NCBI RefSeq assembly: GCF_000025685.1
Contig: NC_013964.1
Location: 90,001 to 122,000 of the forward strand
From: Haloferax volcanii DS2
GTDB taxonomy: Archaea > Halobacteriota > Halobacteria > Halobacteriales > Haloferacaceae
Direction: 5' to 3'
Length of the DNA: 32,000 nucleotides
Shown piece by piece: positions 1-32,000 of this stretch. The notes beneath the pieces are model-generated. The model was given only the letters and a program-made list of their open reading frames with translations. It was not told where the DNA came from and searched no databases. The first letter of the stretch is position 1; each line of letters begins with the position of its first letter. The translations under genes were made by a program, and so were the position numbers.

Positions 1-600
1 CGCGCCGGCGAGTTTCGCGGCCTGCACGTACTCCTCGCTGCGCTCGCTGGCGACGATGCTCTGGACGAGGCGGGCGTGCCACGTCCACCACAGCGCCGCG
101 ATGGCTATCATCGCGTTCGTCAGCGTCGGCTCCAAGGCCGATGTGATTGCCAACGCCATCACGAGCGGCGGTAAGGCGAGCGCCGTGTCGGTCGCCCGCA
201 TGATAATCGTCTCGGTCCAGCCGCCGTAGTAGCCGGCGACGAGGCCGAGCAGCACGCCCACGGGGACGCCGAAGCCGAGGACGACGGCCACGAGCATGAG
301 CGACAGCCGGTAGCCGAAGAGGATGCGCGAGAGCACGTCGCGGCCGACGTGGTCGGTCCCCAGCGGGTGGTCGACGCTCGGCGGCTGAAGCGTGTTCGAG
401 AAGTCGGTGAACTTCCCGGCGTGTTCGGGGTACGGCGCGACGACGGGCGCGAAGACGGCGAGCAGGACGATGGCGATGATGATGCCGAGACCGACGACGC
501 TCATCGGCCTGCTGGTAAAGCGCTTCCACGACCGTTGCCAGAGTTCGCGGCGCTCGGCCGAGACGACCCGGTCGAGGACGCTCGTCGACTCGGCGCTCAT
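1..600 (-). CDS. ABC transporter permease, DppC/OppC type (start in window, 3' end beyond window edge)
   Basis: Absent from the ORF track because it runs off the window. Reverse translation from ATG 600-598 gives MSAESTSVLDRVVSAERRELWQRSWKRFTSRPMSVVGLGIIIAIVLLAVFAPVV..., a typical N-terminus plus first TM helix of the second Dpp/Opp permease. The frame stays open to nt 1. ATGA start/stop overlap with the upstream permease (stop 597-599). Confidence 0.85.
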   Translation of the reverse strand, partial: MSAESTSVLDRVVSAERRELWQRSWKRFTSRPMSVVGLGIIIAIVLLAVFAPVVAPYPEHAGKFTDFSNTLQPPSVDHPLGTDHVGRDVLSRILFGYRLSLMLVAVVLGFGVPVGVLLGLVAGYYGGWTETIIMRATDTALALPPLVMALAITSALEPTLTNAMIAIAALWWTWHARLVQSIVASERSEEYVQAAKLAGA

Positions 601-1628
601 GTCGCCTCCTCCATCGCCAGTCTGATGCGCGGGTCGACGCGACCCAACAGCACGTCGACGAGGAAGTTGATGCTCACGAACGCGACGCCGATGGTCATCG
701 TGACGCCGACGACGGCGTTGAAGTCGTTGTTCAGCACCGCGGTGACGCCGTAGGACGCGAGGCCGGGCCACGAGTAGACGAGTTCGATGAGGAACGCGTT
801 GCCCAGAAGCGAGGCGTACAACAGCCCCAGAATCGTGAGCGTCGGGATGAACGCGTTCTTGAGCGTGTACTTGTACGTGACGAGCCACGAGGGGAGGCCG
901 AAGCCGCGTTCGGCCTCGACGTAGTCTTGGTCTTTCACGTCAATCATGCTCGACCGGGTGATGCGCATCACCTGTCCGATGCCGGCGAGCGAGAGCGCGA
1001 GCGCCGGGAGGATGATGTGCGCCCACGCGTCGACGTGGGCCGCGAGGTTCCCCGACAGCAGGGTGTCCACGAGCAGGAAGCCCGTGAACCGCGAGACGCC
1101 CGAGCCGAACTCCGAGCCGAGCCGCCCCGTGATGGGGAGCCATTCGAGCAGGTAGCCGAATATCAGCTGGAACATGATTGCGACGAAGAAGCCGGGCACG
1201 CTCACGCTGAAGAACGCGACGAGCCGCGTCGCGTTGTCGGCGAGCCCGTCTTTGTTCTGCGCGGCGATGACGCCCAGCGGGATGCCGATGACGACGGTGA
1301 GGAACATCGACACCGTGATGAGTTCGAGCGTCGCCGGCAGGTAGTAGACGATGTCGGTGCTGACCGCGCGCTTCGTTTCGAGGCTCGTCCCGAGGTCTCC
1401 GACGAGCAGGCCCCGCATGTAGTCGAGGTACTGCAACGGAATCGGCTTGTTCAGGCCCATCTCGGCGGCGAGCGCCTGCACCTGCTCTTCGGACGCGAGC
1501 GCGCCGAGGGCCATTCGCGCGGGGTTCCCGGGGAGCACTCGTGACGTGGTGAAGATGATTATCGACAGGCCGATGAGACTCACGAGGATGCCCGCGAGCC
1601 GGCGCACGAGATACTGCCAGTACTTCAT
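597..1628 (-). CDS. ABC transporter permease, DppB/OppB type
   Basis: ORF 597..2006 trimmed to the internal Met at 1628 (MKYWQYLVRRLAGILVSLIGLSIIIFTTSRVLPGNPA...), the standard N-terminus of the first Dpp/Opp permease, with multiple hydrophobic spans. The 126 upstream codons are Arg/Pro-rich and lie inside the SBP gene. ATGA overlaps at both ends (1625-1628, 597-600) suggest translational coupling. Confidence 0.9.
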   Translation of the reverse strand: MKYWQYLVRRLAGILVSLIGLSIIIFTTSRVLPGNPARMALGALASEEQVQALAAEMGLNKPIPLQYLDYMRGLLVGDLGTSLETKRAVSTDIVYYLPATLELITVSMFLTVVIGIPLGVIAAQNKDGLADNATRLVAFFSVSVPGFFVAIMFQLIFGYLLEWLPITGRLGSEFGSGVSRFTGFLLVDTLLSGNLAAHVDAWAHIILPALALSLAGIGQVMRITRSSMIDVKDQDYVEAERGFGLPSWLVTYKYTLKNAFIPTLTILGLLYASLLGNAFLIELVYSWPGLASYGVTAVLNNDFNAVVGVTMTIGVAFVSINFLVDVLLGRVDPRIRLAMEEAT

Positions 1629-3370
1629 TCTTGGTAGATGTCGGGGAACCAGTAGTCGAAGCTCATCGACGGCCGGAAGGTGTAGCCCGCCACGTCGGCG
1701 GCGAAGGCGTGTTTCTTCGACTGGACGAAGATGAACAGGTCGGGGTACTGGTTCGCGATGCGTTCTTGCACCTCGGCGTACAGTTCGGCGCGGGCGTCGG
1801 CGTCGACCGTCGAGCGCGCCTCGTCGATGAGGGAATCGACGTTCTCGTCTTCGAGGTGTTCCATGCTCATCCACGTCGAGGCGGCCTCGGAGTGGTACTG
1901 GTTGTAGAACACCGTGTCGGGCGAGGGGTACACCGGCCCGTAGAACACCTGATTGATGTGGGGCGTGTCCTCGACGCTCGTGGCGAGTTCCGTCATCGTC
2001 CCCCACGTCTGGGGGTTCAACTCGACGTCGATGCCGATTTCGTCCATGTTCTGCTGGAACAGCAGCCCCATCTTCTCTTCGAGGCCGTAGTCCTTCACGT
2101 AGGTGTTCTGGACGGTGATGTCGCCCTCCTCGTAGCCGGCGTCGGCGAGAATCTGCCGCGCCCGCTCGGGGTCGTAGGTCGGCTGGACGATGTCGTCGTT
2201 GTGGACGCCGAACGACGACGGGAGCGGGCCCTGCGCGGGGAGCGACCCCGGCGCGATTTCGTTGCGCGCCGTCTCGTAGTCGAAGCCGTAAGCCATCGCC
2301 TCGCGGACCGCGGGGTCGTCGGTCGGGGCCTTCTGGGTGTTGATTTTGAAGTAGAACGTCGTCACCGTCGGCACCGACTCGACGCGGATGTCGTCTTCGG
2401 CAGCGAGCGCCTCGTAGGTCTCCTCGCTTTGGTACTGGCTCGACATGTCGAGTTCGCCCGTCTTCATCAGCGAGCGGACGGTCGGGTCGTTGGTGATGAT
2501 TTGGACGGTGACGTTGTCGTACGCGCCGTCTTTGAACGAGCCCCAGTAGTCCGCGTAGCGGCTGAACGAGATCTGGGCCTGCCGCTCGAAGCCCGCGAGC
2601 TCGTACGGGCCGGAGCCGGCGTCGTTGTCGTTGAGGAACGACTGGGCGTAGTCGCCGCGGTCGCCGAAGTCGCCGTCCTCGGCGTTGTCGAGGACCTGCT
2701 GTTTGTCGACGACGAACAGTAACACGAGCGTCGCGAGGAACGGCGAGTGGACGCGGTCGAGCGTGAACGACACGGTCCGCTCGTCCTCGACGGTCACGTT
2801 CTCCTTCGAGAGCACGTTACCGAGCAGCGACGAGTAGCCTTGGTTGATATCGAGGAAGCGCTCGGCCGAGAACTGCACGTCCTCCGCCGTAACGGGGTTG
2901 CCGCTGTGGAACGTCGCGCCCTCGCGGAGCGTGAACGTGTAGGTCTGGTTGTCGTCCGAGACGGTCCAGTCCTCCGCGAGGTGCCCCTGCAAATTCCCCT
3001 CCGTATCGGGGAACACGAGCGGGTCGTAGAGGTTGACCAACGCGAGCACCTGCGTGTAGTCGGTCCCCTTCGCGGGGTCGACGGTCCCGAAGCGCTGGGT
3101 CGCGCTCATGCGGAGCGTCGAACTGCCCGAGTCGCCGCCGGACGACGACTCCGTCTCTGTCTCCTCGTCGTCGCCGCCCGAGGCCGTGGTCTGTTCTTGG
3201 CCGTCGTAGCTCTCGCCGCCGCCGGAACAGCCCGCGAGACCGGCGATTCCGGCCGTCCCGAGCGCCTTGAGGAAGTTCCGCCGACTCGCCGCGTCTCCGA
3301 ACCGAGCGCGGACCGACTCCGACGCCGAACCCACCTGCGACCGCATCTGTGTGATGTCTTTTCTCGACAT
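1625..3370 (-). CDS. ABC transporter substrate-binding lipoprotein, SBP family 5 (Dpp/Opp type), Tat-exported
   Basis: 581-aa ORF with twin-arginine motif SRRNFLK, lipobox LAGC, then a Gly/Ser/Asp/Glu/Thr-rich linker. The mature part has family-5 SBP character (NLYDPLV, FHSGNPVTAEDV, YADYWG). An alternative start at Met9 (3346) is possible. Confidence 0.9.
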   Translation of the reverse strand: MSRKDITQMRSQVGSASESVRARFGDAASRRNFLKALGTAGIAGLAGCSGGGESYDGQEQTTASGGDDEETETESSSGGDSGSSTLRMSATQRFGTVDPAKGTDYTQVLALVNLYDPLVFPDTEGNLQGHLAEDWTVSDDNQTYTFTLREGATFHSGNPVTAEDVQFSAERFLDINQGYSSLLGNVLSKENVTVEDERTVSFTLDRVHSPFLATLVLLFVVDKQQVLDNAEDGDFGDRGDYAQSFLNDNDAGSGPYELAGFERQAQISFSRYADYWGSFKDGAYDNVTVQIITNDPTVRSLMKTGELDMSSQYQSEETYEALAAEDDIRVESVPTVTTFYFKINTQKAPTDDPAVREAMAYGFDYETARNEIAPGSLPAQGPLPSSFGVHNDDIVQPTYDPERARQILADAGYEEGDITVQNTYVKDYGLEEKMGLLFQQNMDEIGIDVELNPQTWGTMTELATSVEDTPHINQVFYGPVYPSPDTVFYNQYHSEAASTWMSMEHLEDENVDSLIDEARSTVDADARAELYAEVQERIANQYPDLFIFVQSKKHAFAADVAGYTFRPSMSFDYWFPDIYQE

Positions 3371-3403
3371 ACGTTACTCATCCTCACAGAGGTGCAATGG
3401 AAC

Positions 3404-3413
3404 ATAAAGATAC
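3404..3413 (-). promoter_or_regulatory. TATA-like box for the SBP/permease operon
   Basis: The minus strand reads GTATCTTTAT, centred about 38 nt upstream of ATG 3370. The same GTATCT(T/A)T core occurs at 10371-10381 and 16685-16697, and as ATCTTTAT at 7280-7289. Confidence 0.35.
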
Positions 3414-3690
3414 CGTATAGTAACCTAAAACAATATTCTCGGTTCAAAACGAAATGCCCGATGAACAATATGGAACAATGTGGCTGTCTGTCGTCTGCCA
3501 CACGTCTGGTCGTGTCTCCGTAATCGACGGACTGCACGACCGTCCGAAGCACGTCGCCGGCTGTCGTGGACGATTGGAAATATTAGTTTTCCGCCCGCTG
3601 GCGCTCGCTCACCGCTCGCGCCCGCGCTCTCCCACGCTACTGCGACGAGAGCCCGTTCCCGACTGTACAGTTCTCGGTCGTTCGAGACGG

Positions 3691-3925
3691 ATTATTATAA
3701 GAAAGCAATGATATTTTGAAATATGACAAATTTATCTGGGGCCTCGTAGGGGGCCTATCATAAATTCACAAAGTGGATTCTAAAACGCCTATTTATGGCT
3801 ATAACATCTGGTTTATCTCCTTATTACTGGATATTTATTAGTCATTGTGACTCGACAACTGATTGCCTATCTATACTGAATCCTATATTTTAAGAAAAAT
3901 ATATGCTTACTTACTTTTTATGACC
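3691..3925. other. AT-rich island inside a 722-bp divergent intergenic region
   Basis: About 235 bp that are by eye far below the window's GC (runs such as attattataagaaagcaatgatattttgaaatatgacaaatttatc and tatattttaagaaaaatatatgcttacttactttttatg). Contains many TATA-like words, no ORF of 60 aa or more, and one GC-rich insert with direct GGGGCCT repeats (3738-3744, 3750-3756). Confidence 0.6.
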
Positions 3926-4067
3926 TCACACAAGACGCTGTTCCGAACCGTCTCTCCGGCTTGGTTGCACCCGGCTTGTTCGCCCCGTTCCATCTCGCAG
4001 AAGTGATTCTGAAATCGGAAATCTAGTTGACAATTTGGCACGTGGTGTGACTCGGACGACGCTTAAG

Positions 4068-4079
4068 TCCCCGCGGGGA
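4068..4079. promoter_or_regulatory. Perfect 12-bp palindrome TCCCCGCGGGGA between the AT-rich box and the lactonase start
   Basis: tccccgcgggga equals its own reverse complement. It lies at -25 to -14 relative to ATG 4093, directly after the AT-rich gcttaag (4061-4067). Confidence 0.3.
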
Positions 4080-4092
4080 GAACGGCCACTCG

Positions 4093-4962
4093 ATGGCATG
4101 GGAGTTCGAGCGGGTCGCGGGTCCGTTTCGGGCCACCGAGGGCCCGATTTGGACCGGCGACGCGGTTCGATTCACGGAGATAAAGGAGAATCAGGTCCTC
4201 GAATACGACCCGGGGACGGGAGAGACGTGCGTCTACATCGACTCGACCGCCGGCGCGGTCGGCCTCCACGAGGGACGCGACGGCGAACTGTACGCCTGCG
4301 AGGCCGAGGGCCACCGCATCGCCGCGTTGACACCGGGTGAATCCGCGTCGGTCGTCGTCGACGAGTTCGAGGGGACGCCGCTCAACGGGCCGAACGACCT
4401 CGAAATCGACCACGACGGGGATATCTGGTTCACCGACCCCGACGACAAAGACCGGGGGCTGCTCGGTCACACCTCCGTCTTCCGCGCCGAGCGGGTGGAT
4501 GCGGACGCGAGCGACGGTTGGCGACTCGTCCGCCTCACAGACGAGATGGACCGACCGAACGGCATCCTCCTCTCGCCGGACGAGTCGCGACTGTACGTCG
4601 CAGAATGCACCTACGGCCCGGACCAAGAGACCGACCTGCGGGCCTATCCGATTCGCGACGACGGGTCGCTCGGCCCCCGCGAGATACTGCACGACTTCGG
4701 TGACCATCGCGGTATCGACGGCATGACGCTCACGGAGTCGGGCGACATCGTCGCCTGCGCCGGCTGGGAGAAAGGCGGCCCCGGACCGTCGATATATGTG
4801 TTCTCCCCGGAGGGCGAGGTGCTCGAACGTCACCCGTTCCCCGAGAACCGCCCGACGAACTGCACGCTCGGCGGGCCGGACTGCTCGACGCTCTACGTCG
4901 CGGACATGACGGGCAGCCTCTACGCGGCCGAGACCGACCGCTCGGCGTACGTTCGCTTCTGA
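4093..4962 (+). CDS. SMP-30/gluconolactonase/LRE-family sugar lactonase
   Basis: 289 aa with beta-propeller lactonase character (EGPIWTGD, PNDLEIDHDGDIWFTDP, RPNGILLSPDESRLYVAE, GIDGMTLTESGDIV). No signal peptide. Confidence 0.88.
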   Translation: MAWEFERVAGPFRATEGPIWTGDAVRFTEIKENQVLEYDPGTGETCVYIDSTAGAVGLHEGRDGELYACEAEGHRIAALTPGESASVVVDEFEGTPLNGPNDLEIDHDGDIWFTDPDDKDRGLLGHTSVFRAERVDADASDGWRLVRLTDEMDRPNGILLSPDESRLYVAECTYGPDQETDLRAYPIRDDGSLGPREILHDFGDHRGIDGMTLTESGDIVACAGWEKGGPGPSIYVFSPEGEVLERHPFPENRPTNCTLGGPDCSTLYVADMTGSLYAAETDRSAYVRF

Positions 4963-5046: not shown

Positions 5047-5463
5047 TCAGCGGAGCGGTTCGAACGCGTCGAGCCCCGCTTGGGACGCTTCCATGTCTTC
5101 GGACACCGCGCCGCCGCTCGCGCCGACCGCGCCGACGACGACGCCGTCGTGTTCGACCGGGAACCCGCCGCCGAAGACGACGACGCGACCGTTATCGGTG
5201 GTGTGGAGGCCGTACACGTCGCCGCCGGGTTCGGCTCCTTCCTTCAGTTCGTGGGTGGGCTTCTTCACCGCGGCCGCGGTGTAGGCCTTGTTCTGTGCGA
5301 TGTTACTCGCGACGAGCTTCGCACCGTCCATCCGGCGGAAGCCGAGGAGGTTCCCCTCGCTGTTCGTCACCGCGAGGTTCAGCGGAACGCCGAGTTCCTC
5401 GGCTTTCTCCTCCATCGCGTCGAGAATCGTCTTGGCTTCGGCTAGCGTCAGCTCTTGTACCAT
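5047..5463 (-). CDS. GlcG/HbpS-like (DUF336) putative heme-binding protein
   Basis: ORF 5047..5499. The likely start is Met13 (MVQELTLAEAKTILDAMEEKAEELGVPLNLAVTNSEGNLLGFRRMDGA...NIAQNKAYTAA...GGGFPV...GAVGASGG), typical of the GlcG family. The longer start at 5499 is not excluded. Confidence 0.8.
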   Translation of the reverse strand: MVQELTLAEAKTILDAMEEKAEELGVPLNLAVTNSEGNLLGFRRMDGAKLVASNIAQNKAYTAAAVKKPTHELKEGAEPGGDVYGLHTTDNGRVVVFGGGFPVEHDGVVVGAVGASGGAVSEDMEASQAGLDAFEPLR

Positions 5464-5638: not shown

Positions 5639-7255
5639 TTACCGCGGGAGGGCGTTCCCCGACCGCTCGAACGACGCCACGTCGCCGGCGTCGGCGGCGT
5701 CGATGAGGTCGTTGTTGACGAACAGGCGCTCGTCGGCCGTGTCCGACAGCGAGAGGAACGTTCCCGTTCCCTCGGTCGCCCGCGAGTTCCGAACCGTGAT
5801 GTCCGTCGTGTCGGAGACCGAAATCGCCGCCGCGTCGTCGTCGCGGTGGGCCTGTCGGCCGACGAAGCCGTCGACCAGCAGGCCGTCCACGTCCTCGCAG
5901 GCCAGTCCGCTCCGGTAGTAGTCGGGCAGGTCGCCGTCGTCGTCCCACTCGACGGTCACGTCGCGCATCGTCACGTCGCGGGCGTTCTCGACGTGGACGC
6001 CGGCGATGTCGTTGGCGAAGATGGGCGTGACGACCGAACTCGGCTGGAGGTCGAAGTTACCGCCCACCTCGTCGGCGTGCTCGCTTCCGGCGAGGTCGAT
6101 GCGGACGTTGTCGAACTCGATGGTCTCGATATCGGCGTCCGCGGAGCCGTAGACGAGCGCGCCGTTCTCGCTGCGCGCGACGATGTTCGAGAAGCGCACG
6201 TTCCGAATCCCGCCGAGGTCGGTGTCGCCGTCCCGCGGGACCGACGTGACGTAGATGGGCTCGCCTTTGCCCCACCACGGGCCGGGGAGCATGTTGGAGT
6301 TGACGACGATGTCGGTGAAAAGCACGTTCTCGACGACGCCCGAGTCGCGGTGCTGGATGCCGAGGCCGCGGTTCGATTCCTGCACGACGATGTTCTGGAA
6401 CAGGCAGTCGCGAATCGTGTCGTCGGTGCCCGAGCCGAACTTGATGGCGCAGGCGCTCGACCGGAGCGTGCAGTTCGTCACGACGATGCCCTCGCAGGTC
6501 GTCGGCTCGTCGGGGCGCGCGCCGAAGGTGATGCTGTCGTCGCACGACTGGATGGTGCAGTCGGAGATGTGGACGTTCTTCGTGTCGCCGAGCGCGATGC
6601 CGTCGCAGTTCGGGATGAGCAGGTGGTTGAGGATGTCGACGCCGCGGATATCGACCTCCTCGGTTCCATGGAACGACAGCGTCCACGCGGGCATGTCGCG
6701 GATGGTCACGTCGCGGACGCGGACGTTCGTGCAGTTGTTGAACCGGAACATCGGCCCGGGCCGGAAGTCGGGTTTGGCGACGGGCCAACCGTCCGTCCCA
6801 CTCGTCCGCGAGAGATAGGCGTCGCCCTGCCGCGCCTCGTGGGGACCGTTCGAGATGAGCGGGTGGGACGCGCTCTCGTTGGAGTGGCCCTGAATGGGCG
6901 TGTCCATCCGCATGAACTCGGTTCCGAGGCCGTCGAACTCGCCCTCGCCGGCGATGGTGACGTTCTCCACGTCCTCGGCGAGGAAGAAGATGCGCTCGTT
7001 GTCGGGGCCGATGAACTTGTCCGTGAACTCCGACTCGTCTTTCGCGGGGCTGACGACCGCGCCGGCTTCCAGATAGAGCGTCACGTCGCTTCGGAGATGG
7101 ACGGTTCCGACGGTGTACGGCCCGCTGGGGACGGTGACGGTCCCGCCGCCGGACTCCGAGCAGTCGTCGATGGCCGTCTGGAACGCCTCGGTCTGGAGGT
7201 CGGCCGTCTCGTCGGCGTAGGCTGTCACGTCGAAGGCACTCGCTGCGGGTGGCAT
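5639..7255 (-). CDS. Glycoside hydrolase family 28 protein (polygalacturonase/rhamnogalacturonan-hydrolase-like beta-helix), cytoplasmic
   Basis: 538 aa. The N-terminus FQTAIDDCSESGGGTVTVPSGPYTVGTVHLRSDVTLYLEAGA is typical of pectate-lyase-fold/GH28 proteins. Repeated beta-helix coils are present. GH28-type acidic motifs are IPNCDGIAL (Asp218 codon 6602-6604) and QSCDDSITF (Asp239-Asp240). No Tat/Sec leader. Confidence 0.88.
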   Translation of the reverse strand: MPPAASAFDVTAYADETADLQTEAFQTAIDDCSESGGGTVTVPSGPYTVGTVHLRSDVTLYLEAGAVVSPAKDESEFTDKFIGPDNERIFFLAEDVENVTIAGEGEFDGLGTEFMRMDTPIQGHSNESASHPLISNGPHEARQGDAYLSRTSGTDGWPVAKPDFRPGPMFRFNNCTNVRVRDVTIRDMPAWTLSFHGTEEVDIRGVDILNHLLIPNCDGIALGDTKNVHISDCTIQSCDDSITFGARPDEPTTCEGIVVTNCTLRSSACAIKFGSGTDDTIRDCLFQNIVVQESNRGLGIQHRDSGVVENVLFTDIVVNSNMLPGPWWGKGEPIYVTSVPRDGDTDLGGIRNVRFSNIVARSENGALVYGSADADIETIEFDNVRIDLAGSEHADEVGGNFDLQPSSVVTPIFANDIAGVHVENARDVTMRDVTVEWDDDGDLPDYYRSGLACEDVDGLLVDGFVGRQAHRDDDAAAISVSDTTDITVRNSRATEGTGTFLSLSDTADERLFVNNDLIDAADAGDVASFERSGNALPR

Positions 7256-7279
7256 GTACGCGTACCCTCGCGGTGACCT

Positions 7280-7289
7280 ATCTTTATAC
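7280..7289. promoter_or_regulatory. Shared AT-rich TATA-like element of the divergent GH28 / sulfatase pair
   Basis: ATCTTTATAC is the only AT-rich word in the 56-bp gap. It is centred about 27 nt upstream of GTG 7312 (+) and about 30 nt upstream of ATG 7255 (-). Confidence 0.45.
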
Positions 7290-13717: not shown

Positions 13718-13719
13718 GG

Positions 13720-24737: not shown

Positions 24738-24753
24738 TTCCCGCCTGGGGAAC
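24738..24753. promoter_or_regulatory. Dyad TTCCC-GCCTG-GGGAA(C); extended form GTTCCC-N5-GGGAAC; candidate IclR operator
   Basis: Perfect 6-bp arms at 24737-24742 and 24748-24753. It abuts the upstream side of the iclR TATA box (-34 to -50 from the iclR start). A 15/16 match lies at 20149-20164. Confidence 0.4.
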
Positions 24754-24890: not shown

Positions 24891-25958
24891 ATGCCAGCAG
24901 ACGAGCTTACACCAGTCCAGCGCGCCGCGTCGTATCTCCGGTCGTTGGACATCGACGGTCAATCGTGGATTACCGGCGTCGCCATCAACGGCCTGCTCGC
25001 CGAGGGCGGAGACGAGTCGGTCGAGCGCGCGAAGCACTTCGTCGACACCGCGGTGGCGACCCAGAACGACGCCGGGCAGTTGAGCTACGGCCCGAGCTAC
25101 CCAATTGAGGTTTTCAGCCACGGCCGCGAGTACGAGGCGAGCTGGGAGCTGACCGTCAAGAAGTGCATGAACACGAACAACAGCACCGCCATCGGTCACA
25201 GCGTCCTCGACTTCTACGACCGCACGGGCGAGGACCGCTACCTCGACGCGGCCGAACGCGCCTACGAATCGCTTCTCTCCTTCGAGCGGACCGAAGACGG
25301 CGGCATCCCTCACCACGACCCCGAACTCGCGGGCATCAAGTCGCTGTGGATCGACTCCGTCTACATGATGTGCCCGTTCCTCGCGCGCTACGGCGCGGCC
25401 GCGGGCGACGCCGACGCCTTCGACGAGGCGGTCGAGCAGATTCTGATTCACGCCGCGCACCTCCGCGACGGCCACACGGGGCTGTTCCGCCACATCTGGG
25501 TCGAACAGCCGAACCACTACCCGCAGGGCGCGTTCTGGGCGCGCGGCAACGGGTGGGCCGCCGCCGCCTCGGCGGACGTGCTCGAACGGCTCCCCGAGGA
25601 CCACCCGAAGCGCGACGACCTCCTCGACCTGTTCCGGTCGCACTGCGAGGCGCTCCTTCCGCTCCAAGACGGTAGCGGTTTCTGGCACAACCTCGTCGAC
25701 GACCCGCACACGCCGCTCGAATCGTCGGGGACGCTCATGTTCGCCTACGCGTTCGCCCGCGGCATCGACCTCGGCATCCTCGATGCGGAGACCTACCGCC
25801 GACCCGCCGAAGACGGGCTCGCAGCCGTCTCTCGCGTCGTCGGCGAGGAGGGCGCGGTCAACCGCGTCGCCGGCCCGCCGGGCGGCCCCGAGGCTCCGCT
25901 GACGGACACGCCTTACGGACAGGGCTGGTTCCTGATGGCCGCGGCCGCGCTCGACTGA
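24891..25958 (+). CDS. Glycoside hydrolase family 88/105 protein (unsaturated glucuronyl/rhamnogalacturonyl hydrolase), cytoplasmic
   Basis: ORF 24735..25958 trimmed to MPADELTPVQRAASYL. Family blocks of the (alpha/alpha)6 barrel: LWIDSVYMMCPFLARYG, FWARGNGWAAA, GFWHNLVDD, ESSGTLMFAYAF. No signal peptide. Confidence 0.88.
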   Translation: MPADELTPVQRAASYLRSLDIDGQSWITGVAINGLLAEGGDESVERAKHFVDTAVATQNDAGQLSYGPSYPIEVFSHGREYEASWELTVKKCMNTNNSTAIGHSVLDFYDRTGEDRYLDAAERAYESLLSFERTEDGGIPHHDPELAGIKSLWIDSVYMMCPFLARYGAAAGDADAFDEAVEQILIHAAHLRDGHTGLFRHIWVEQPNHYPQGAFWARGNGWAAAASADVLERLPEDHPKRDDLLDLFRSHCEALLPLQDGSGFWHNLVDDPHTPLESSGTLMFAYAFARGIDLGILDAETYRRPAEDGLAAVSRVVGEEGAVNRVAGPPGGPEAPLTDTPYGQGWFLMAAAALD

Positions 25959-26058: not shown

Positions 26059-27156
26059 ATGACTTACCACGCAGGCATCATCGGCACGGGCGGCATCGCA
26101 GGGATGGGCATCCTCGGCATGCACGACGAGGAGGCCATCGGCAGAGAGAAAATCGACGCGAGCCACGCGGGCGGGTACGCCGCGACCGACGACATCGAAC
26201 TCGTCGCCGTCGCAGACGTGGACGAGTCGAAACTGGACACCTTCGGGGAGGCGTGGGACATCCCCGCCGACCGCCGGTACGTCGGCCACGAGGCGATGCT
26301 CGAAGCTGAGGACCTCGACGCGGTGTCGGTCTGCACGCCGTCGTTCCTCCACCGCGACCACGTCGTCTACGCCGCGCGCTCCGCGGCCGACCCCTCGGTC
26401 GTCTGGTGCGAGAAACCCATCGCGTCGGCCGTCAGCGACGCCGAGGAAATGGTCGCCGTCTGCGACGACACCGACACGGAACTCGTCGTCAACCACTCGT
26501 TCCGGTTCACGGACAAGCTCCGTCGGCTCCGCGACCTCGTCCGCGATGAGGGTATCCTCGGCGACGTGAAGTCCGTGAGCGCGCAGTACCGCATGGAACT
26601 CATGCGGAACTCCACGCACGTCCTCGACACCCTCGTCTACCTCCTCGACGCGCGGGCCTCGCGGGTGAGCGGCCACATCACCGGCGAGAACGAGGCGCTC
26701 GACGCGCTGGACGCCACGGAGTCGGTCGTCGACGCCGGCGGCGGCGGGCACGTCGTCATGGACGACGGCACGTTCGTCACCGTGGACTGCACGATTCCGC
26801 GCGACGTCTCCTCGATGACGCTGAGTTTCATCGGCACCGAGGGCAAACTCTACATGAACAACGACGACGGCGAGTGGCGCTACTGGTCGCTCGAAGACGG
26901 CGAACACGTCGAGCGGTCGCTCCCCGGCATCGAGGGCGCGTGGACGTGGGAATCGGACTACAAGGGGTCGTTCGCCAACGCGGCGGCCCACGTACAGGAA
27001 CTCCTCGGCGGCGACGCCGAAAACTACTCGCCCGGCGTCGCGGCGACCCGCTCGCTCGAAATCATCGTCGGGTTCTACCTCTCGCACTACACCGATTCGA
27101 CGGTCGATATCCCGCTTCCGGGGCCGCTCCGGGAGGTCCCTATCACGTCGTGGTGA
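26059..27156 (+). CDS. Gfo/Idh/MocA-family NAD(P)-dependent oxidoreductase (putative sugar dehydrogenase)
   Basis: 365 aa with N-terminal Rossmann GIIGTGGIAGMG and the family EKP motif (VWCEKPIA). The C-terminal alpha/beta domain is present. Confidence 0.9.
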   Translation: MTYHAGIIGTGGIAGMGILGMHDEEAIGREKIDASHAGGYAATDDIELVAVADVDESKLDTFGEAWDIPADRRYVGHEAMLEAEDLDAVSVCTPSFLHRDHVVYAARSAADPSVVWCEKPIASAVSDAEEMVAVCDDTDTELVVNHSFRFTDKLRRLRDLVRDEGILGDVKSVSAQYRMELMRNSTHVLDTLVYLLDARASRVSGHITGENEALDALDATESVVDAGGGGHVVMDDGTFVTVDCTIPRDVSSMTLSFIGTEGKLYMNNDDGEWRYWSLEDGEHVERSLPGIEGAWTWESDYKGSFANAAAHVQELLGGDAENYSPGVAATRSLEIIVGFYLSHYTDSTVDIPLPGPLREVPITSW

Positions 27157-27696: not shown

Positions 27697-27999
27697 TCAG
27701 ATCATCCGGTAGACTTCGTCCATCCAACTGTCGTCGGTCTCGACGGTGATGCCGCTCATGACCTCTGCCCAGTCGGCTTGCGCCTCGCTGTTGTCCATTA
27801 CCTCTTGGATGGCCTCCGGGTCGTCGACTTCCATGAAGCCGAAAACGTGGCCGTCTTTCTCGAAGACGCTGTACGTTTGCAGGCCGGCGTCGGAGTCCAA
27901 GTAGGCGGATTCGAGCGCCTCGGGGACGTTCTCGTGTTTCGTTCGGTACTCTTCTCGCTTGCCGTCTTTAATCTCCAGGTGGAACGCGATTCGCGCCAT
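27697..27999 (-). CDS. rhaM: L-rhamnose mutarotase
   Basis: 100 aa. MARIAFHLEIKDGKREEYRTKHENVPEALESAYLDSDAGLQTYSVFEKDGHVFGFMEVDD aligns by eye with E. coli RhaM ([57 protein letters not shown]). Confidence 0.88.
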   Translation of the reverse strand: MARIAFHLEIKDGKREEYRTKHENVPEALESAYLDSDAGLQTYSVFEKDGHVFGFMEVDDPEAIQEVMDNSEAQADWAEVMSGITVETDDSWMDEVYRMI

Positions 28000-28054
28000 A
28001 CGGCCTCCGATTCGGCGGCCCCCGTCTTAGCTTTTCGGCGGGTAAGATTTAGTA

Positions 28055-28066
28055 CGGGAACGCCCG
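28055..28066. promoter_or_regulatory. GC-rich dyad CGGG-AACG-CCCG between the AT-rich box and the amidohydrolase start
   Basis: Lies at -24 to -13 from ATG 28079, directly after the AT-rich taagatttagta (28043-28054). This is the same architecture as 4068-4079 in front of the other lactonase-type gene. Confidence 0.3.
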
Positions 28067-28078
28067 TCGTCGATTGTA

Positions 28079-28948
28079 ATGATAGATACCCACACCCACG
28101 CGTGGGGTGCCGCGAGCCCGGAACACCCGTGGACCAACGGCCCCATCTTGGACCTCGTGGACAGCTTCGACGTACACACCGTCTACACCGCCGAGCGCCT
28201 GCTCGCCGACATGGACCGAAACGGCGTGGACGAGGCGGTCGTCGTGGGCTACCCTATCTGCGACTGGACGGACAACTGGTACACCCGACGGGTCGCCGCC
28301 GAGTACGACCGACTCCACGGCATCGTGATGCTCGACCCCTTCGCCGACGACGCGGTCGAGCGTCTCGACCGCTGTATGGAGACCGACGGCGTCCTCGGCT
28401 TCCGCCTCGGCGCGGCCTGCCCGTACGATCGCATGTGGGAGACGTTCGACCCGAGCGTGACGTGGCTCCGAGAGAGCGTCGAGGAGACCGCGTTCTGGGA
28501 GGCCGCGGTCGACCACGACGCGACCGTCCAGATTCTCTGCGACCACGGCCAACTCGACCAGGCGCTCGAACTCGTCGAGGCGTATCCCGAACTCACCTAC
28601 CTGTTCGACCACTTCGCCCACGCCGGCCCCGAAACCCCCACCGACGAGGGGACGTTCGGCCGGTTCGCCGACCTCGCGGAACACGACTCGGTCGCGGTGA
28701 AGGTCTCGGAAATTGTCCACATGTCCGACTCGGCGTTTCCCTACGCCGACATGCACGACCACGTCCGGTGGCTCCTCGACACCTTCGGTCGCGAGCGGGT
28801 CGTCTGGGGCTCCGACTACCCCAACGTCAGCGACGTCGCCAGCTACGCCGAGGCGTGTAACTGGCTCAAGCAGGTCGACTCGTTATCGAAGGCCGACCGG
28901 TCGTGGCTGACCGAGAAGTCGTTCCGGCGGCACGTCGACCTCGGCTGA
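28079..28948 (+). CDS. Amidohydrolase-2 family (PF04909-like) metal-dependent hydrolase; sugar-acid lactonase or aldarolactone isomerase candidate
   Basis: 289 aa with an N-terminal IDTHTHAW (HxH metal site), later DHFAH, and WGSDYP (Asp). The size and motifs fit the L-rhamnono-/L-fucono-lactonase group. Confidence 0.85.
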   Translation: MIDTHTHAWGAASPEHPWTNGPILDLVDSFDVHTVYTAERLLADMDRNGVDEAVVVGYPICDWTDNWYTRRVAAEYDRLHGIVMLDPFADDAVERLDRCMETDGVLGFRLGAACPYDRMWETFDPSVTWLRESVEETAFWEAAVDHDATVQILCDHGQLDQALELVEAYPELTYLFDHFAHAGPETPTDEGTFGRFADLAEHDSVAVKVSEIVHMSDSAFPYADMHDHVRWLLDTFGRERVVWGSDYPNVSDVASYAEACNWLKQVDSLSKADRSWLTEKSFRRHVDLG

Positions 28949-29030
28949 GCGTAACCGGTCGTCACCGCGTGCCTCGCTCGCACTGTCGTCGATCCGGTGG
29001 CTGAACTCTCCATCTCCGAATGACACCGGT

Positions 29031-29044
29031 ATATTTATTATAAT
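29031..29044 (+). promoter_or_regulatory. TATA-like region of the CUT1 sugar ABC operon
   Basis: atatttattataat is centred about 36 nt upstream of ATG 29073. It resembles the iclR box (gtatatattt). Confidence 0.4.
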
Positions 29045-29072
29045 GAACTATAGTGGTTTGTAATAGCACATC

Positions 29073-30539
29073 ATGACTGATAGTGGTTCACAGAACCGGC
29101 TCAGTAGGCGGCGGTACGTGACCGGACTCGGAGCAGGTCTCACAGCGGCACTAGCGGGTTGTATGGGTGGCGGGAACGGCGGTGGCAGTGGTTCCGATGG
29201 CGGTTCCGACGGGGGAGGCTCCGGCGGCGGTGGCGGCGACTCCGGGTCGCAGTCACTCGACTTCTGGCTGTTCGGCGGCATCCCCGCCGAACGAGAGTAC
29301 ATCAGTAACCACTACAGCAGTTACAGCGACCACGACGTCACCTACCAGCACCAAGAGTGGGGGCAGAAGTACCAGATTATCGCGTCCGCGGCGGCGAACA
29401 ACAACCTCCCGGACGTGATGGCCGGCCAGACTCAGCAGATTCCGGATTACGTCGGCGCGAGCGCCATCCAACCGCTCGACCAAGAGCAGTTCGCCGACCA
29501 GTTGGAGGAGATAAACAGCCGGTTCATCCAGGCGAACGTCGACACGCAGATTTACGACAGCCTCGGCGACACCGAAGGAGAGCGGCAGTGGGGGCTTCCC
29601 GGCGGCTACGCCGACCTCGGTCCGTTCGTGGACATCCGAACCGACTACCTCGAACAGACGAGTTTCGACAGCCCGCCGCGCAACTGGGAGGAGCTCATCC
29701 AACTCGGCGAGGAGATGCAGGAGCTCGACGAGGTGTCGGCGGCGATTACCGCGCCGGGGACCGACTTCGGCCTGACGACCGGCTACTTCATCGGCTTCGT
29801 CTACGCCAACGGCGGTCGGTACTTCGACCCCGAGACGCTGGAGGCGACGGTCGACCAACCCGGCTTCGTCGACGCCGTCAGGCTCTATCAGGACATCGCC
29901 GAGGCCGGTCTGTTCCCCGACTCGATGGCCGAGAACGACCACATCGGTGCGGGACGGCTCCTCCGCGAGGGCGAGTCCGGCATCTTCATCACGTACTCCC
30001 ACGCGAACGCGGTCTACCAGACGACCGGCGCGCCGCAGGCGTGGCTCGACGGCGAGGGCCACACCGTCACCCGCGCGCCGCTTCCGGACAGCCCGTCGGG
30101 GAGCTTCGAACCCCGCGACCTGCTCCTGCAGAACGCGCAGGGCTTCATGCTCGGCAACGGCACCGACTCGGAGGCCGAACTGCAGGCCGCCTTCGACTTC
30201 ACCGAGTGGTGGAACTCCGAAGAACAGCTCGCGCCGTGGACCTACGACGCCGAGAACGACGTGGGCATCCGCGGGCGCGTCCCGACGCTCGAAAGCGCCT
30301 TCGAGGACCCGAGCGACCTCTTCCGGAGCCAGTTCGGCGACCTCGTGACGCTGTACGAGAACGACGACCTGTTCACGCGCACCTCGCGGTTCCCGTCGTT
30401 CTCGGGCATCGCGTCGGTCCAGAGCATCATCAACACCGAGGTCATCCAGCCGGTCGTCCTCGGCAACGCGACGGCAGAGGAGGCCTGTAGCGCCGCCAAC
30501 GAATCGGTTCAGGAAGTCATCGACGAGGAGCTGGCCTGA
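29073..30539 (+). CDS. Extracellular solute-binding lipoprotein, SBP family 1 (CUT1 sugar ABC transporter), Tat-exported
   Basis: 488 aa with SRRRYV twin-arginine motif, lipobox LAGC, and a long Gly/Ser/Asp linker (GGGNGGGSGSDGGSDGGGSGGGGGDSGS). The mature domain is of the sugar-SBP type. Confidence 0.9.
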   Translation: MTDSGSQNRLSRRRYVTGLGAGLTAALAGCMGGGNGGGSGSDGGSDGGGSGGGGGDSGSQSLDFWLFGGIPAEREYISNHYSSYSDHDVTYQHQEWGQKYQIIASAAANNNLPDVMAGQTQQIPDYVGASAIQPLDQEQFADQLEEINSRFIQANVDTQIYDSLGDTEGERQWGLPGGYADLGPFVDIRTDYLEQTSFDSPPRNWEELIQLGEEMQELDEVSAAITAPGTDFGLTTGYFIGFVYANGGRYFDPETLEATVDQPGFVDAVRLYQDIAEAGLFPDSMAENDHIGAGRLLREGESGIFITYSHANAVYQTTGAPQAWLDGEGHTVTRAPLPDSPSGSFEPRDLLLQNAQGFMLGNGTDSEAELQAAFDFTEWWNSEEQLAPWTYDAENDVGIRGRVPTLESAFEDPSDLFRSQFGDLVTLYENDDLFTRTSRFPSFSGIASVQSIINTEVIQPVVLGNATAEEACSAANESVQEVIDEELA

Positions 30540-30597
30540 CGATGCGACTCGAACCGTCGCTCGAACGACGGCGGCCCAACGGCGGTGAGTTACGACC

Positions 30598-31524
30598 ATG
30601 AGTTACTCGAAGCAGGCGAGGGGCTCGTTCGAGAGCGTCTCCAAGCGGATTCCGGAGGGCGTCAAGGTGTACCTCCCGGTCCTGCCGGTGACGGCGCTCG
30701 TCGGGCTGTTCATCCTCTACCCCATCGCGCAGGCGATCTATTCGAGCTTCTTCAACAAGGACCTGCTCGCGCCCAGCGAGGCCGAGTTTATCGGACTGGC
30801 GAACTACGCCGAAATCTGGTCGAATCCGACTATCCATCAGGTGCTGTGGAACACGCTCATCTGGGTCGTCGTCGGCAGTTCCGCCGCTATCGTCCTCGGC
30901 TTCCTGATGGGTTGGCTCCTCCACGAGAAACTGCCGTACACGAGCGTCGCGAGCGCAATCGTGCTCATCCCGTGGGTCCTCCCGCGGGTCGTCGGCGCGT
31001 CCATCTGGCAGTTCATGTTCGGCGGGTCGCAGGGCATCATCAACGAACTGCTCGTCCAGCTCGGCGTCATCGACGAGTACATCGTCATGCTCGGCTCGAC
31101 GGAGCTCTCGCTGTGGCCGCCCATCATCGGGATGATTTGGCGGCTCGCACCGCTTTTCGCGCTGTTGACGCTCACGTCCCTGCAGGGCATCGACGAGCAT
31201 CTCTACGAGGCCGCGCGCATGGACGGCGCGACGCCGTGGGAGCAGTTCCGGTTCATCACCATCCCGATGATGCGGTACAACCTCGCCATCGGGTTCCTCC
31301 TGATGCTCATCTACAACATCAGGAACTTCTCGATGATTTGGGTGATGACGAAGGGCGGCCCCGGCGTCTCCAGTAGCACGCTCCCGGTCATGATCTACCG
31401 GACGGCGTTCGTCGACTTCGACGTGGGGCTGGCGTCGGCGCTGTCGCTCATCCTGTTCGTCGTCCTGCTCGTGTTCTCGTACTACTACATTCAGGTGTAC
31501 GACCAAGTGCGGGGTGACGTCTGA
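30598..31524 (+). CDS. Carbohydrate ABC transporter permease (MalF/UgpA-like)
   Basis: 308 aa with six hydrophobic spans and the EAA loop region LQGIDEHLYEAARMDGATPWEQFRFITIPMM. Confidence 0.9.
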   Translation: MSYSKQARGSFESVSKRIPEGVKVYLPVLPVTALVGLFILYPIAQAIYSSFFNKDLLAPSEAEFIGLANYAEIWSNPTIHQVLWNTLIWVVVGSSAAIVLGFLMGWLLHEKLPYTSVASAIVLIPWVLPRVVGASIWQFMFGGSQGIINELLVQLGVIDEYIVMLGSTELSLWPPIIGMIWRLAPLFALLTLTSLQGIDEHLYEAARMDGATPWEQFRFITIPMMRYNLAIGFLLMLIYNIRNFSMIWVMTKGGPGVSSSTLPVMIYRTAFVDFDVGLASALSLILFVVLLVFSYYYIQVYDQVRGDV

Positions 31525-32000
31525 TGGCGGCGAAAGACCCCGACACGGCCGCCGAGTTCCGGCGGAACGAGTCGTGGCTGTTCGACACCACGGCGGGCGC
31601 GTACGTCCGCAAGACGGCGGTTTCGCTCCTGACGCTCGTCGTCTTCGCGTTCGTCCTCTTCCCGCTGTACTGGATGGTCGTGACGGCGTTCAAGACCACC
31701 GCGGAGATTCAGCAGATTCCGCCGACGGTGTTCCCGAACGATTTCTCGTTGGAGGGCTTCCGGCTCGTCGTCGAGTCGTCGATTCAGGCGGGCGGCTACA
31801 CCTCGCTTTTCGCTAACCTGTTCGGCTGGCAGGCGTCGTCGGCCATCGACATCGACATCCTGTCGCTCGTGCTGAACAGCCTGAAAGTCGCGATCGGCGC
31901 GGGCGCAATCGCGCTCGTCTTCGGGACGGCCGCGTCGTACGTGCTCTCGCGCCGCGACTTCGCCGGGAAGAACGCGCTCATGAGCATCTTCCTCGCGTCG
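31524..32000 (+). CDS. Carbohydrate ABC transporter permease (MalG/UgpE-like), 3' end beyond window edge
   Basis: Not in the ORF track because it is open-ended. ATG 31524 overlaps the preceding stop (cTGATGg). My translation is MAAKDPDTAAEFRRNESWLFDTTAGAYVRKTAVSLLTLVVFAFVLFPLYWMVVTAFKTTAEIQQIPPTVFPNDFSLEGF..., a typical MalG-type N-terminus. The frame is open to nt 32000. Confidence 0.85.
   Translation, partial: MAAKDPDTAAEFRRNESWLFDTTAGAYVRKTAVSLLTLVVFAFVLFPLYWMVVTAFKTTAEIQQIPPTVFPNDFSLEGFRLVVESSIQAGGYTSLFANLFGWQASSAIDIDILSLVLNSLKVAIGAGAIALVFGTAASYVLSRRDFAGKNALMSIFLAS

Follow-up and report, generated by a model that had tools for sequence, protein, structure and literature searches.

The window examined in this work is a stretch of 32,000 nucleotides of the Haloferax volcanii DS2 megaplasmid pHV3 (NC_013964.1, positions 90,001 to 122,000), which spans the genes HVO_B0080 to B0108. 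We consider it somewhat probable that this stretch carries an uncharacterised catabolic island for acidic oligosaccharides containing uronate and rhamnose, fused to the L-rhamnose (rhc) cluster. The evidence comes from the conserved neighbourhoods of a family GH28 glycoside hydrolase in other haloarchaea, from leaderless enzymes that may trim imported oligosaccharides, and from a set of genes that could together oxidise hexuronates to α-ketoglutarate.

The gene count between the published locus-tag anchors, HVO_B0083 (an SMP30 lactonase, PMC3404096), HVO_B0095 (a universal stress protein, Usp) and HVO_B0104 (rhamnose mutarotase, RhaM, PMC11023807), fits exactly. Genes (about 29 in the window) were called on GC content at third codon positions (GC3), Pfam assignments are those above the gathering score, and signal leaders were judged by eye from the translations. 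Ten window proteins were searched for as exact sequences, and every one is a protein of H. volcanii DS2 (ADE01456/D4GP87, D4GP88, D4GPA0 and D4GPA7 among them). A sequence-only reading of the same DNA had proposed an archaeal island, likened to a polysaccharide utilisation locus (PUL), for a sulfated and esterified rhamnose/uronate glycan. All the genes that it named lie where it had placed them and exceed their Pfam gathering scores, but nine further catabolic genes of the window were left out (those for the SMP30 lactonase, a GlcG/HbpS-like protein, an enolase-superfamily dehydratase, Usp, a short-chain dehydrogenase/reductase (SDR) resembling the uronate dehydrogenase Udh, a KdgD-like protein of the dihydrodipicolinate synthase (DHDPS) family, an aldehyde dehydrogenase, a GFO/IDH/MocA oxidoreductase and an L-rhamnono-1,4-lactonase). 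Its interpretation is partly supported and needs corrections. A locus-tag search retrieved no mention, in the literature searched, of HVO_B0085/86/87/93/96/97/98/100/101/102/103/105, and the supplements of the Archaeal Proteome Project likewise gave nothing; for HVO_B0083 to B0103 the annotation is public and the function unstudied. The remark in the sequence-only reading that it knew of no such locus characterised in Archaea therefore holds for the left part, whereas the right part is the characterised rhc cluster.

Conserved neighbourhoods and enzymes of the island

At least eight species of Haloferax share the cluster in synteny, with 94-98% identity. For a wider comparison, a scan of 185,579 species genomes yielded 80 loci with GH28 relatives, about 26 of them haloarchaeal; gene calls and clustering were performed on 19 non-identical haloarchaeal loci, with Pfam scans of the conserved neighbours. 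Permease clusters place an ATP-binding cassette (ABC) importer of the HVO_B0089-93 type beside GH28 orthologues at 11 loci (10 outside Haloferax, plus that of H. namakaokahaiae), and HVO_B0089-93 is the Dpp importer that travels with GH28. Other recurrent neighbours are the PL22 oligogalacturonate lyase and the GH78 α-L-rhamnosidase (5 loci each), GH4 and GH115 (3 loci each), as well as RhaM, rhamnonolactonase, rhamnonate dehydratase and lactate-utilisation genes; a PL11-like protein stands beside GH28 in Halogranum, and GH2 and GH42 (judged from sequence) in Haloarcula salina. Orthologues of the island's SGNH esterase lie close to GH28 at 3 loci from gene calls (Natronoglomus, Halomontanus, Halogeometricum) and in Halobonum by tblastn only (54%). 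Those of the sulfatase adjoin it in three Halosimplex species, H. namakaokahaiae and Halorubrum lipolyticum (gene calls) and in Halopelagius (77%, tblastn), and the SMP30 lactonase is co-conserved with it in Halorubrum lipolyticum, Halopelagius and H. namakaokahaiae. Since gene orders differ between genera, these associations are not simply inherited blocks. Moreover, the cluster is not a chance juxtaposition, because it is syntenic in Haloferax and its parts recur around GH28 orthologues in other genera. Through synteny, GH28 is linked with the metabolism of both rhamnose and uronate, and the sulfatase and the esterase are in turn linked with GH28; the uronate-rhamnose link drawn by the sequence-only reading is thus backed, and the neighbours of GH28 in about 15 other haloarchaeal genomes support a rhamnose/galacturonate-type glycan.

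A GH28 paralogue (42%) on scaffold7 of Haloarcula amylovorans (locus L030) is flanked by orthologues of the window's SDR (70%), KdgD-like protein (63%), aldehyde dehydrogenase (70%) and IclR regulator (50%), and this locus is a second, differently organised uronate/aldarate island. It also holds genes for a GarL-like aldolase, a UxuA-like dehydratase and a thiamine-diphosphate enzyme. The apparent GH2 of Haloarcula salina (L025:49-8294, with the apparent GH42) has 1682 aa and a ricin-like C-terminus, and GH97 was seen in GH28 neighbourhoods of uncultured Halobacteriales (L051:1686-3452, confirmed by Pfam; L062:11682-13448, near-identical by sequence).

In Pfam hidden Markov model and structure comparisons, the 538-aa and 355-aa proteins of the window stay inside the GH28 and GH88/105 families, respectively. 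The AlphaFold2 model of the 538-aa protein HVO_B0085 (pLDDT 87.7, pTM 0.90) is predicted to have a right-handed parallel β-helix fold with GH28 enzymes as nearest solved relatives. Indeed, apart from 4mxn, a putative glycosyl hydrolase, its top 11 Foldseek matches all belong to GH28, the best being the exo-polygalacturonases 2uve and 3jur and the Bacteroides galacturonidase 5olp. Residues N216-x-D218 and D239-D240, which include the three catalytic aspartates, do not vary among 15 homologues and line up with NNDG and GDD of 5olp. The nearest named family in NCBIfam is that of Agrobacterium PglB (E 8e-67, below cut-off). HVO_B0085 belongs to GH28 and is probably exo-acting, though not a textbook polygalacturonase; the canonical polygalacturonase signature was rejected for it.

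For the 355-aa protein HVO_B0102 the earlier call of GH88/105 could be narrowed. Its best match in the PDB is 3k11, an unclassified putative glycosyl hydrolase, followed by named GH105 chains (3qwt, YteR 1nc5/2gh4, 4xuv); the chain labelled as family 88 (5noa) is much weaker (6e-18), so that GH105, close to YteR-type chains, was retained and GH88 rejected. At residue 153 it has a WIDS motif, the counterpart of W-L-D-D in 3k11, and the Asp of this W-x-D motif is presumably the catalytic residue, as in YteR.

The best solved relative of the sulfatase HVO_B0086 is 7oz8 (E 1.9e-54), which carries a HATCY motif and was taken on that motif to be BT1918. The paper on 7OZ8 ascribes HATCY to BT1918, an S1_46 sulfatase of 3-O-sulfated N-acetylglucosamine (3S-GlcNAc), and reports that marine S1_46 members vary at the residues binding the N-acetyl group. 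In HVO_B0086 there is similar variation, Y94 and Y408 of BT1918 being replaced by Asn and Arg. The SGNH protein HVO_B0098 gave no similarity to CE12 in the PDB search (E up to 0.1), where its only match was 4lhs, an uncharacterised Bacteroides protein, and membership of CE12 is not supported. A 15-nt tandem repeat (2.3 copies, 20272-20305) lies at the start of its gene and codes for HDDIQHDDVQ. The sulfate and ester decorations that the sequence-only reading gave to the substrate are putative, since they are deduced from these two enzymes of uncertain specificity.

None of these four enzymes (GH28, GH105, sulfatase, SGNH) has a twin-arginine (RR) motif or a hydrophobic leader, and their N-termini align by eye with M1 of homologues; only 11 in-frame codons precede the ATG of GH28. 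The three substrate-binding proteins (SBPs) of the window do carry twin-arginine and lipobox leaders, read from the translations as SRRNFLK...LAGC, SRRDLIK...LAGC and SRRRYV...LAGC. The idea of import followed by cytoplasmic trimming fits these leaderless enzymes beside importers with lipoprotein SBPs.

The second half of the proposed pathway had been overlooked by the sequence-only reading. The window appears to encode a full oxidative uronate-to-α-ketoglutarate module, for which we propose the SDR, the lactonase, the dehydratase, the KdgD-like protein and the aldehyde dehydrogenase as successive steps. The last enzyme, HVO_B0100, passes the haloarchaeal NF052305 equivalog at full length (815 bits vs 750). 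The dehydratase HVO_B0087 matches the Agrobacterium tumefaciens structures 1rvk/4hcd/4mmw over residues 3-375 (E 1.8e-109, 370 bits), which we take to be galactarate dehydratase III (GalrD-III). The top four PDB matches of the SDR HVO_B0096 are uronate dehydrogenases (3rft, 6mfh, 3ay3; E 4e-19), and it keeps the catalytic YxxxK and the residue aligned with Arg174, the Arg that binds the carboxylate; a search of its homologues returned no relative named Udh and no informative names. HVO_B0097 matches the unassigned structures 3d0c and 3e96 at about E-37 and A. tumefaciens KdgD (4ur7) at 3e-14. KduI and KduD were found nowhere in the window.

Candidate depolymerase, regulation and flanking genes

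The sequence-only reading had noted the absence of a lyase and a rhamnosidase from the window, and tblastn found no lyase, GH78, PL22, GH4 or GH115 there, not even remnants. The absence of a depolymerase is true of DS2, but in sister Haloferax the island includes a gene for a secreted β-helix protein. In several genera a Tat-secreted protein of β-helix repeats with C-terminal ricin-type lectin domains adjoins GH28, and tblastn of plasmids revealed a 552-aa homologue (L088:22095-23753) in H. alexandrinus, H. lucentense and two strains of H. gibbonsii, where its gene stands between those for Usp and the SDR. In DS2 only 81 bp separate these two genes, and in the alignment the flanks match on both sides of a clean gap; the gene is absent from all DS2-type contigs read, and no remnants of it were found in the window by tblastn. 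In all, 133 members of the family were detected, almost all of them from haloarchaea, often in several copies and with lectin domains. A sequence search of the PDB gave no match to the protein. Its model has a core pLDDT >90, and the best structural matches are the mannuronan C5-epimerases AlgE4 and AlgE6, others being the Klebsiella K1 capsule lyase, an alginate epimerase/lyase, the RbmB lyase and phage tailspike depolymerases. Epimerases and lyases of these kinds remove the proton at C5 of uronates. On that ground, the β-helix protein may reasonably be read as a lyase-type depolymerase that creates GH105 substrates. The loss of its gene may explain the missing depolymerase of DS2, which under this reading would be a scavenger or a degenerate variant.

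The IclR-family protein HVO_B0101 is the likely regulator of the island. It is 40% identical to the IclR regulator of the rhc cluster, and its best NCBIfam families are BhcR and KdgR, both below cut-off. Palindromes of the type GTTCCC-N5-GGGAAC occur upstream of the genes for SGNH, the AEC transporter and the aldehyde dehydrogenase, and in the spacer between IclR and GH105; they are candidate operators for HVO_B0101. Two of them, at 20149 and 24738, are exact 16-mers, and both are kept in H. alexandrinus (the only relative compared, 98% identical). The broader TTC…GAA class is enriched between genes: intergenic DNA makes up 12.7% of the sequence but holds 8 of the 19 sites. A stricter palindrome pattern revealed no further operator sites in the window. 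The divergent spacer between GH28 and the sulfatase has a single TTTATA, about 27-30 nt from both start codons, and may serve both genes as one bidirectional promoter of leaderless mRNAs. Scans of the window with Rfam and for tRNAs and tandem repeats gave nothing relevant.

At the right end, RhaM and the CUT1 importer, which the sequence-only reading had counted among the parts of the glycan locus, are present but form the left edge of the characterised rhc cluster. Annotation of this flank was read from H. alexandrinus pBNX82-1 (98% identical), a syntenic region in which rhcB-F are annotated; beyond the window follow the second permease, the ATPase, rhcE, rhcD, a luciferase-like gene, an IclR regulator, rhcF and rhcB. 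The rhc CUT1 system is said, in the 2019 work of Reinhardt, to import rhamnose as the monosaccharide, and most simply it is such an importer. PMC10838023 cites this rhc work for the diketo-hydrolase pathway and the IclR-type activator RhcR.

At the left end, the first Dpp/Opp-type importer adjoins GH28 only in Haloferax. On the DS2 contig its run of SBP, two permease and two ATPase genes, with overlapping or adjacent starts, goes on into DUF917, hydantoinase and two more DUF917 genes. Since the operon continues into such genes, a different, non-glycan substrate is suggested, and this importer is probably outside the glycan system. Three importers for one glycan, as first proposed, were thus an over-count, given that the first Dpp system runs into hydantoinase/DUF917 genes and CUT1 belongs to rhc. 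In this flank (L001:10001-20667), the DUF917 (S-Me-THD) and hydantoinase/oxoprolinase genes lie on the strand of the operon and are followed by an AsnC-type regulator. The spacer between the divergent SBP and lactonase genes (3371-4092) is 722 bp long and AT-rich, with GC of about 0.60 in 2-kb windows over it vs about 0.65 elsewhere, and has no Rfam match.

Around the second Dpp operon, two hydrophobic-looking open reading frames of 72 and 73 aa (10122-10340 and 16769-16990, both on the minus strand) stand as brackets and are hypothetical in relatives. Heptamer-like units GGTCAGC/GGTCGGY at about 10440-10490, just upstream of the end of an ABC ATPase gene, are below the default tandem-repeat threshold. 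On an SRR32913805 contig (L093), the 73-aa frame beside Usp has a GTP_EFTU-family gene as its other neighbour, in the place of the second Dpp SBP; this arrangement is that of a rearranged or engineered strain. Among the other genes of the window, Usp is co-conserved in Halogranum, Halogeometricum and Halopelagius, and HVO_B0103 has an 82% orthologue close to GH28 in Haloarcula salina.

Table 1. Features of the window, in order of position.
Feature	Locus tag	Position	Strand	Basis
First Dpp/Opp-type importer	HVO_B0080-82	1-3370	-	PF00496, 262 bits
DppC, partial (first importer)		1-600	-	
DppB (first importer)		597-1628	-	
SBP_bac_5 Tat-lipoprotein (first importer)		1625-3370	-	
SMP-30/gluconolactonase-family lactonase, proposed aldaro-lactone hydrolase	HVO_B0083	4093-4962	+	PF08450, 140 bits
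HbpS/GlcG-like protein (DUF336), downstream of GH28 on the same strand	HVO_B0084	5047-5463	-	PF03928, 131 bits
Leaderless GH28, putative exo-type uronidase	HVO_B0085	5639-7255	-	PF00295, 63 bits vs cut-off 22.9, residues 169-388
Divergent GH28/sulfatase spacer, 56 bp		7256-7311		TTTATA at 7283-7288
Leaderless S1 formylglycine-type sulfatase	HVO_B0086	7312-8739	+	PF00884, 152 bits; C54-I-P-A-R58
Enolase-superfamily acid-sugar dehydratase, proposed galactarate dehydratase	HVO_B0087	8848-9978	+	PF13378, PF02746
Second Dpp/Opp-type importer (two ATPases, two permeases, Tat-lipoprotein SBP)	HVO_B0089-93	10521-16654	-	PF00496
SBP_bac_5 (second importer)		14798-16654	-	Pfam
Universal stress protein Usp	HVO_B0095	17105-17566	+	PF00582
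DS2 junction without β-helix gene		17567-17647		Alignment
Extended-SDR dehydrogenase, proposed uronate dehydrogenase	HVO_B0096	17648-18487	-	PDB relatives
DHDPS-family protein, proposed 5-dehydro-4-deoxyglucarate dehydratase/decarboxylase	HVO_B0097	18695-19633	+	PF00701
Palindromes upstream of SGNH-AEC-aldehyde dehydrogenase genes		19930-19946, 19995-20011, 20149-20164		Sequence
Leaderless two-domain SGNH esterase	HVO_B0098	20277-21311	+	PF14606, PF13472; GTS residue 166, DxxH residue 318
AEC-family membrane transporter	HVO_B0099	21410-22318	+	PF03547, 86 bits
2,5-dioxovalerate (α-ketoglutarate semialdehyde) dehydrogenase	HVO_B0100	22459-23910	+	NCBIfam NF052305 equivalog
IclR-family regulator	HVO_B0101	23930-24703	-	PF01614, PF09339
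Palindrome in IclR/GH105 spacer		24738-24753		Sequence
Leaderless GH105-type unsaturated uronyl hydrolase	HVO_B0102	24891-25958	+	PF07470, 209 bits
GFO/IDH/MocA oxidoreductase	HVO_B0103	26059-27156	+	PF01408
Left end of rhc cluster		27697-32000		Identical named proteins, syntenic annotation
RhaM	HVO_B0104	27697-27999	-	PF05336
L-rhamnono-1,4-lactonase (Amidohydro_2)		28079-28948		Identical proteins so named by NCBI
CUT1 SBP (SBP_bac_1)		29073-30539	+	Pfam
CUT1 permeases (rhc left end)		30598-31524; 31524 to beyond 32000		

Proposed function and rival explanations

In the function that we propose, a lipoprotein SBP would capture the oligosaccharides and HVO_B0089-93 would import them. In the cytoplasm, the GH105 enzyme would take 4,5-unsaturated uronate off the ends made by a lyase, the exo-type GH28 would take off saturated uronate, most likely α-galacturonate, and the SGNH esterase and S1 sulfatase would strip the substituents. 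The free uronate might then be oxidised by the Udh-like SDR and its lactone opened by the SMP30 lactonase; HVO_B0087 would dehydrate the resulting aldarate, the KdgD-like HVO_B0097 would dehydrate and decarboxylate the product, and HVO_B0100 would oxidise it to α-ketoglutarate. The unsaturated uronate released by GH105 could, more speculatively, be oxidised directly to 5-keto-4-deoxyglucarate, the substrate of KdgD. Released L-rhamnose would enter the adjacent rhc pathway via RhaM. Outside the cell, the depolymerase would probably be the β-helix protein of sister Haloferax, and DS2 would at best scavenge the fragments made by others. The backbone of rhamnogalacturonan I (RG-I) is the closest known model of the substrate, although the substrate could also be a haloarchaeal exopolysaccharide (EPS) or a sulfated glycan of rhamnose and uronate, ulvan-like or of another kind.

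Several observations weigh against this proposal. The DS2 window lacks a recognisable depolymerase or rhamnosidase, no GH105 lies near GH28 outside Haloferax, and the sulfatase is unexplained by a pure pectin model, RG-I being unsulfated. In polygalacturonases the galacturonate carboxylate is bound by the His of GHG and the Lys of RIK; in this GH28 an invariant Ser (S266) stands for the His, and Gln or Asn for the Lys (R296-G-L-G-I-Q/N), replacements that hold across the clade, including relatives from Planctomycetota and Acidobacteriota at about 40% identity; because this His and Lys are missing, the substrate may not be galacturonan. Three of the pathway enzymes also match their named families below cut-off: the best NCBIfam family of HVO_B0087 is L-talarate/galactarate dehydratase, that of HVO_B0097 is KdgD (PRK03620, 149 vs 278; TIGR03249, 128 vs 374), and that of HVO_B0096 is the haloarchaeal glucose-6-phosphate dehydrogenase Azf (168 bits vs a cut-off of 400), the SDR scoring higher to the Azf model than in single-sequence comparison to Udh, with neither threshold passed. 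In addition, a literature search found no experiment on any gene of the island, and pectin, polygalacturonate and rhamnogalacturonan failed to support growth of haloarchaea with GH28 and polysaccharide lyase (PL) genes (PMC9726719, PMC12343721).

The same data can be arranged in other ways. The substrate might be an ulvan-type glycan of glucuronic or iduronic acid and 3-sulfated rhamnose (GlcA/IdoA-Rha3S), in which GH105 cuts between unsaturated uronate and sulfated rhamnose (ΔUA-Rha3S), the sulfatase removes the 3-O-sulfate and rhamnose goes to rhc. The GH105 protein does match the 3S-rhamnoglycuronyl hydrolase 4ce7, weakly but really (2e-16), yet it is nearer to RG hydrolases of the YteR type. 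Likewise, the nearest solved sulfatase is a 3-O-sulfatase, BT1918, whose N-acetyl-binding residues are replaced here, but the rhamnose sulfatase P36 of family S1_25 (6hr5) is a much weaker match (1e-24), and an ulvan S1_25 enzyme was rejected as the closest relative. The sulfatase of Halosimplex sits with GH78, RhaM and GH28, and the island borders rhc directly; against this, GH28 is accompanied elsewhere by PL22, GH4 and a PL11-like gene, and none of PL24, PL25, PL28 and PL40 was recognised. To our knowledge GH28 is absent from ulvan loci, and the Agrobacterium homologue of the dehydratase presumably acts on galactarate and not on glucarate. Taken together, we think an ulvan-type substrate unlikely. 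The island could instead recycle or attack haloarchaeal surface glycans or EPS, of its own host or of neighbours, as the sequence-only reading had considered for the S-layer, an idea for which no direct support emerged. A lyase-made, 4,5-unsaturated end, as needed by GH105, is not known to us from surface glycans. The S-layer glycans of H. volcanii contain hexuronic acids, a sulfated hexose and rhamnose, according to PMC4022621 and PMC3892788, the β-helix family is nearly restricted to haloarchaea, multi-copy, often lectin-bearing and similar to capsule and tailspike depolymerases, and the failed haloarchaeal enrichments on pectin suggest that plant pectin is not the natural substrate. However, no link to agl glycosylation genes was seen, DS2 has no secreted β-helix enzyme, and the companions found elsewhere (PL22, GH78, GH115, GH4, GH42, CBM9) are typical of the degradation of plant or algal walls. 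We regard this explanation as very unlikely.

It is also conceivable, if improbable, that the stretch is a mosaic of separate hexuronate/aldarate and rhamnose pathways with unrelated or decaying hydrolases, the trimming genes of DS2 being relics. In this direction point the loss of the secreted β-helix gene in DS2, the association of the first Dpp system with hydantoinase genes, the missing link between GH105 and GH28 outside Haloferax and the many separate sugar clusters of pHV3 (xac, rhc). On the other hand, every reading frame is intact and the same in many DS2 assemblies, the divergent genes for GH28 and the sulfatase have a 56-bp spacer in common, and across genera GH28 repeatedly occurs, in varying gene orders, with the same importer, SGNH, sulfatase and rhamnose/uronate genes. 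Our preferred reading, a uronate- and rhamnose-directed island fused to rhc, can also be extended to a complete haloarchaeal system for an acidic, possibly sulfated rhamnose-uronate glycan, in which the β-helix protein founds a new polysaccharide-lyase family, its fragments are imported and trimmed in the cytoplasm, and the uronates converge on 5-keto-4-deoxyglucarate and α-ketoglutarate. This extension is doubtful as it stands; if true, no earlier pathway for uronate catabolism would have been described from Archaea, and DS2 would be a natural "cheater" variant that has lost its depolymerase.

Comparison with known systems and significance

The RG-I cluster of Bacillus subtilis consists of yes/yte genes for the ABC importer YesOPQ, the GH105 enzymes YesR/YteR, the SGNH acetylesterases YesT/YesY and the PL11 lyases YesW/YesX. 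The island would share with it ABC import of lyase-made oligosaccharides, a cytoplasmic GH105, deacetylation by SGNH enzymes and release of rhamnose, and one of the best solved matches to HVO_B0102 is YteR. Unlike B. subtilis, Haloferax has an importer of the Dpp/Opp type instead of CUT1 and a sulfatase, and its SGNH protein is without detectable similarity to solved CE12 members. In place of PL11 it has a non-homologous secreted β-helix protein, absent in DS2, and its uronate is predicted to be oxidised to α-ketoglutarate, whereas B. subtilis uses KduI/KduD and 2-keto-3-deoxygluconate (KDG).

The oxidative D-galacturonate pathway of A. tumefaciens (atu3138-3143) comprises Udh, Gli, Gci and KdgD, with the polygalacturonases PglA and PglB (PMC6683767). 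Common to both, as proposed for Haloferax, would be an NAD-dependent uronate dehydrogenase, a KdgD of the DHDPS family and a semialdehyde dehydrogenase leading to α-ketoglutarate; moreover, PglB names the GH28 family nearest to HVO_B0085, and the nearest solved relative of HVO_B0087 is an enolase-superfamily enzyme of A. tumefaciens. In contrast, the Haloferax matches, that of the aldehyde dehydrogenase excepted, are below equivalog cut-offs, a lactonase and an aldarate dehydratase appear to replace Gli and Gci (Gci, 4ggb, matches only at 1.5e-24), and ABC importers of oligosaccharides stand against GaaPQM, a tripartite ATP-independent periplasmic (TRAP) system for monosaccharide uptake. In Flavobacterium sp. 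UMI-01, 4-deoxy-L-erythro-5-hexoseulose uronate (DEHU), which lyases set free from alginate, is oxidised via 2-keto-3-deoxyglucarate and α-ketoglutarate semialdehyde (α-KGSA) to α-ketoglutarate (PMC8563752). Haloferax would likewise encode the last two steps (2-keto-3-deoxyglucarate (KDGR) dehydratase/decarboxylase and semialdehyde dehydrogenase), but the enzyme families differ, UMI-01 using an SDR reductase and an RraA-family dehydratase.

Closer to home, rhc, which includes HVO_B0104 to B0108, and xac lie in the same organism and on the same replicon and are cited in PMC10838023; they are oxidative, non-phosphorylative routes under IclR-type activators, as the island would be. The pentose pathway of xac likewise ends at α-ketoglutarate semialdehyde dehydrogenase. 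The work on xac was reportedly that of Johnsen, between 2009 and 2015. Unlike the island, rhc and xac take up monosaccharides and have no glycoside hydrolase, sulfatase or esterase. As in the PULs of Bacteroidetes, genes for a sensor or regulator, a transporter and carbohydrate-active enzymes for one glycan are clustered, but the Pfam scan of the about 29 window genes found no SusC/SusD pair, there is no outer membrane, and trimming would be cytoplasmic and not periplasmic; the label "PUL-like" given by the sequence-only reading therefore holds only in a loose, Gram-positive sense. Overall, the system is an archaeal form of the bacterial pectin/RG-type utilisation and oxidative uronate pathways.

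We know of no uronate catabolic pathway from Archaea. A 2025 review on the metabolism of H. volcanii names no sugars other than xylose, arabinose, fructose, rhamnose and galactose. How haloarchaea use polysaccharides of uronic acids is a recognised gap, since attempts at enrichment with pectin and alginate have failed (PMC9726719, PMC12343721). The island sits in the best genetic model haloarchaeon, beside a characterised pathway, and natural variants with and without the candidate depolymerase exist. Should our reading prove true, it would bring to light an oxidative route for hexuronates in Archaea and a set of salt-adapted enzymes (GH28, GH105, sulfatase, esterase), perhaps along with a new family of lyases.

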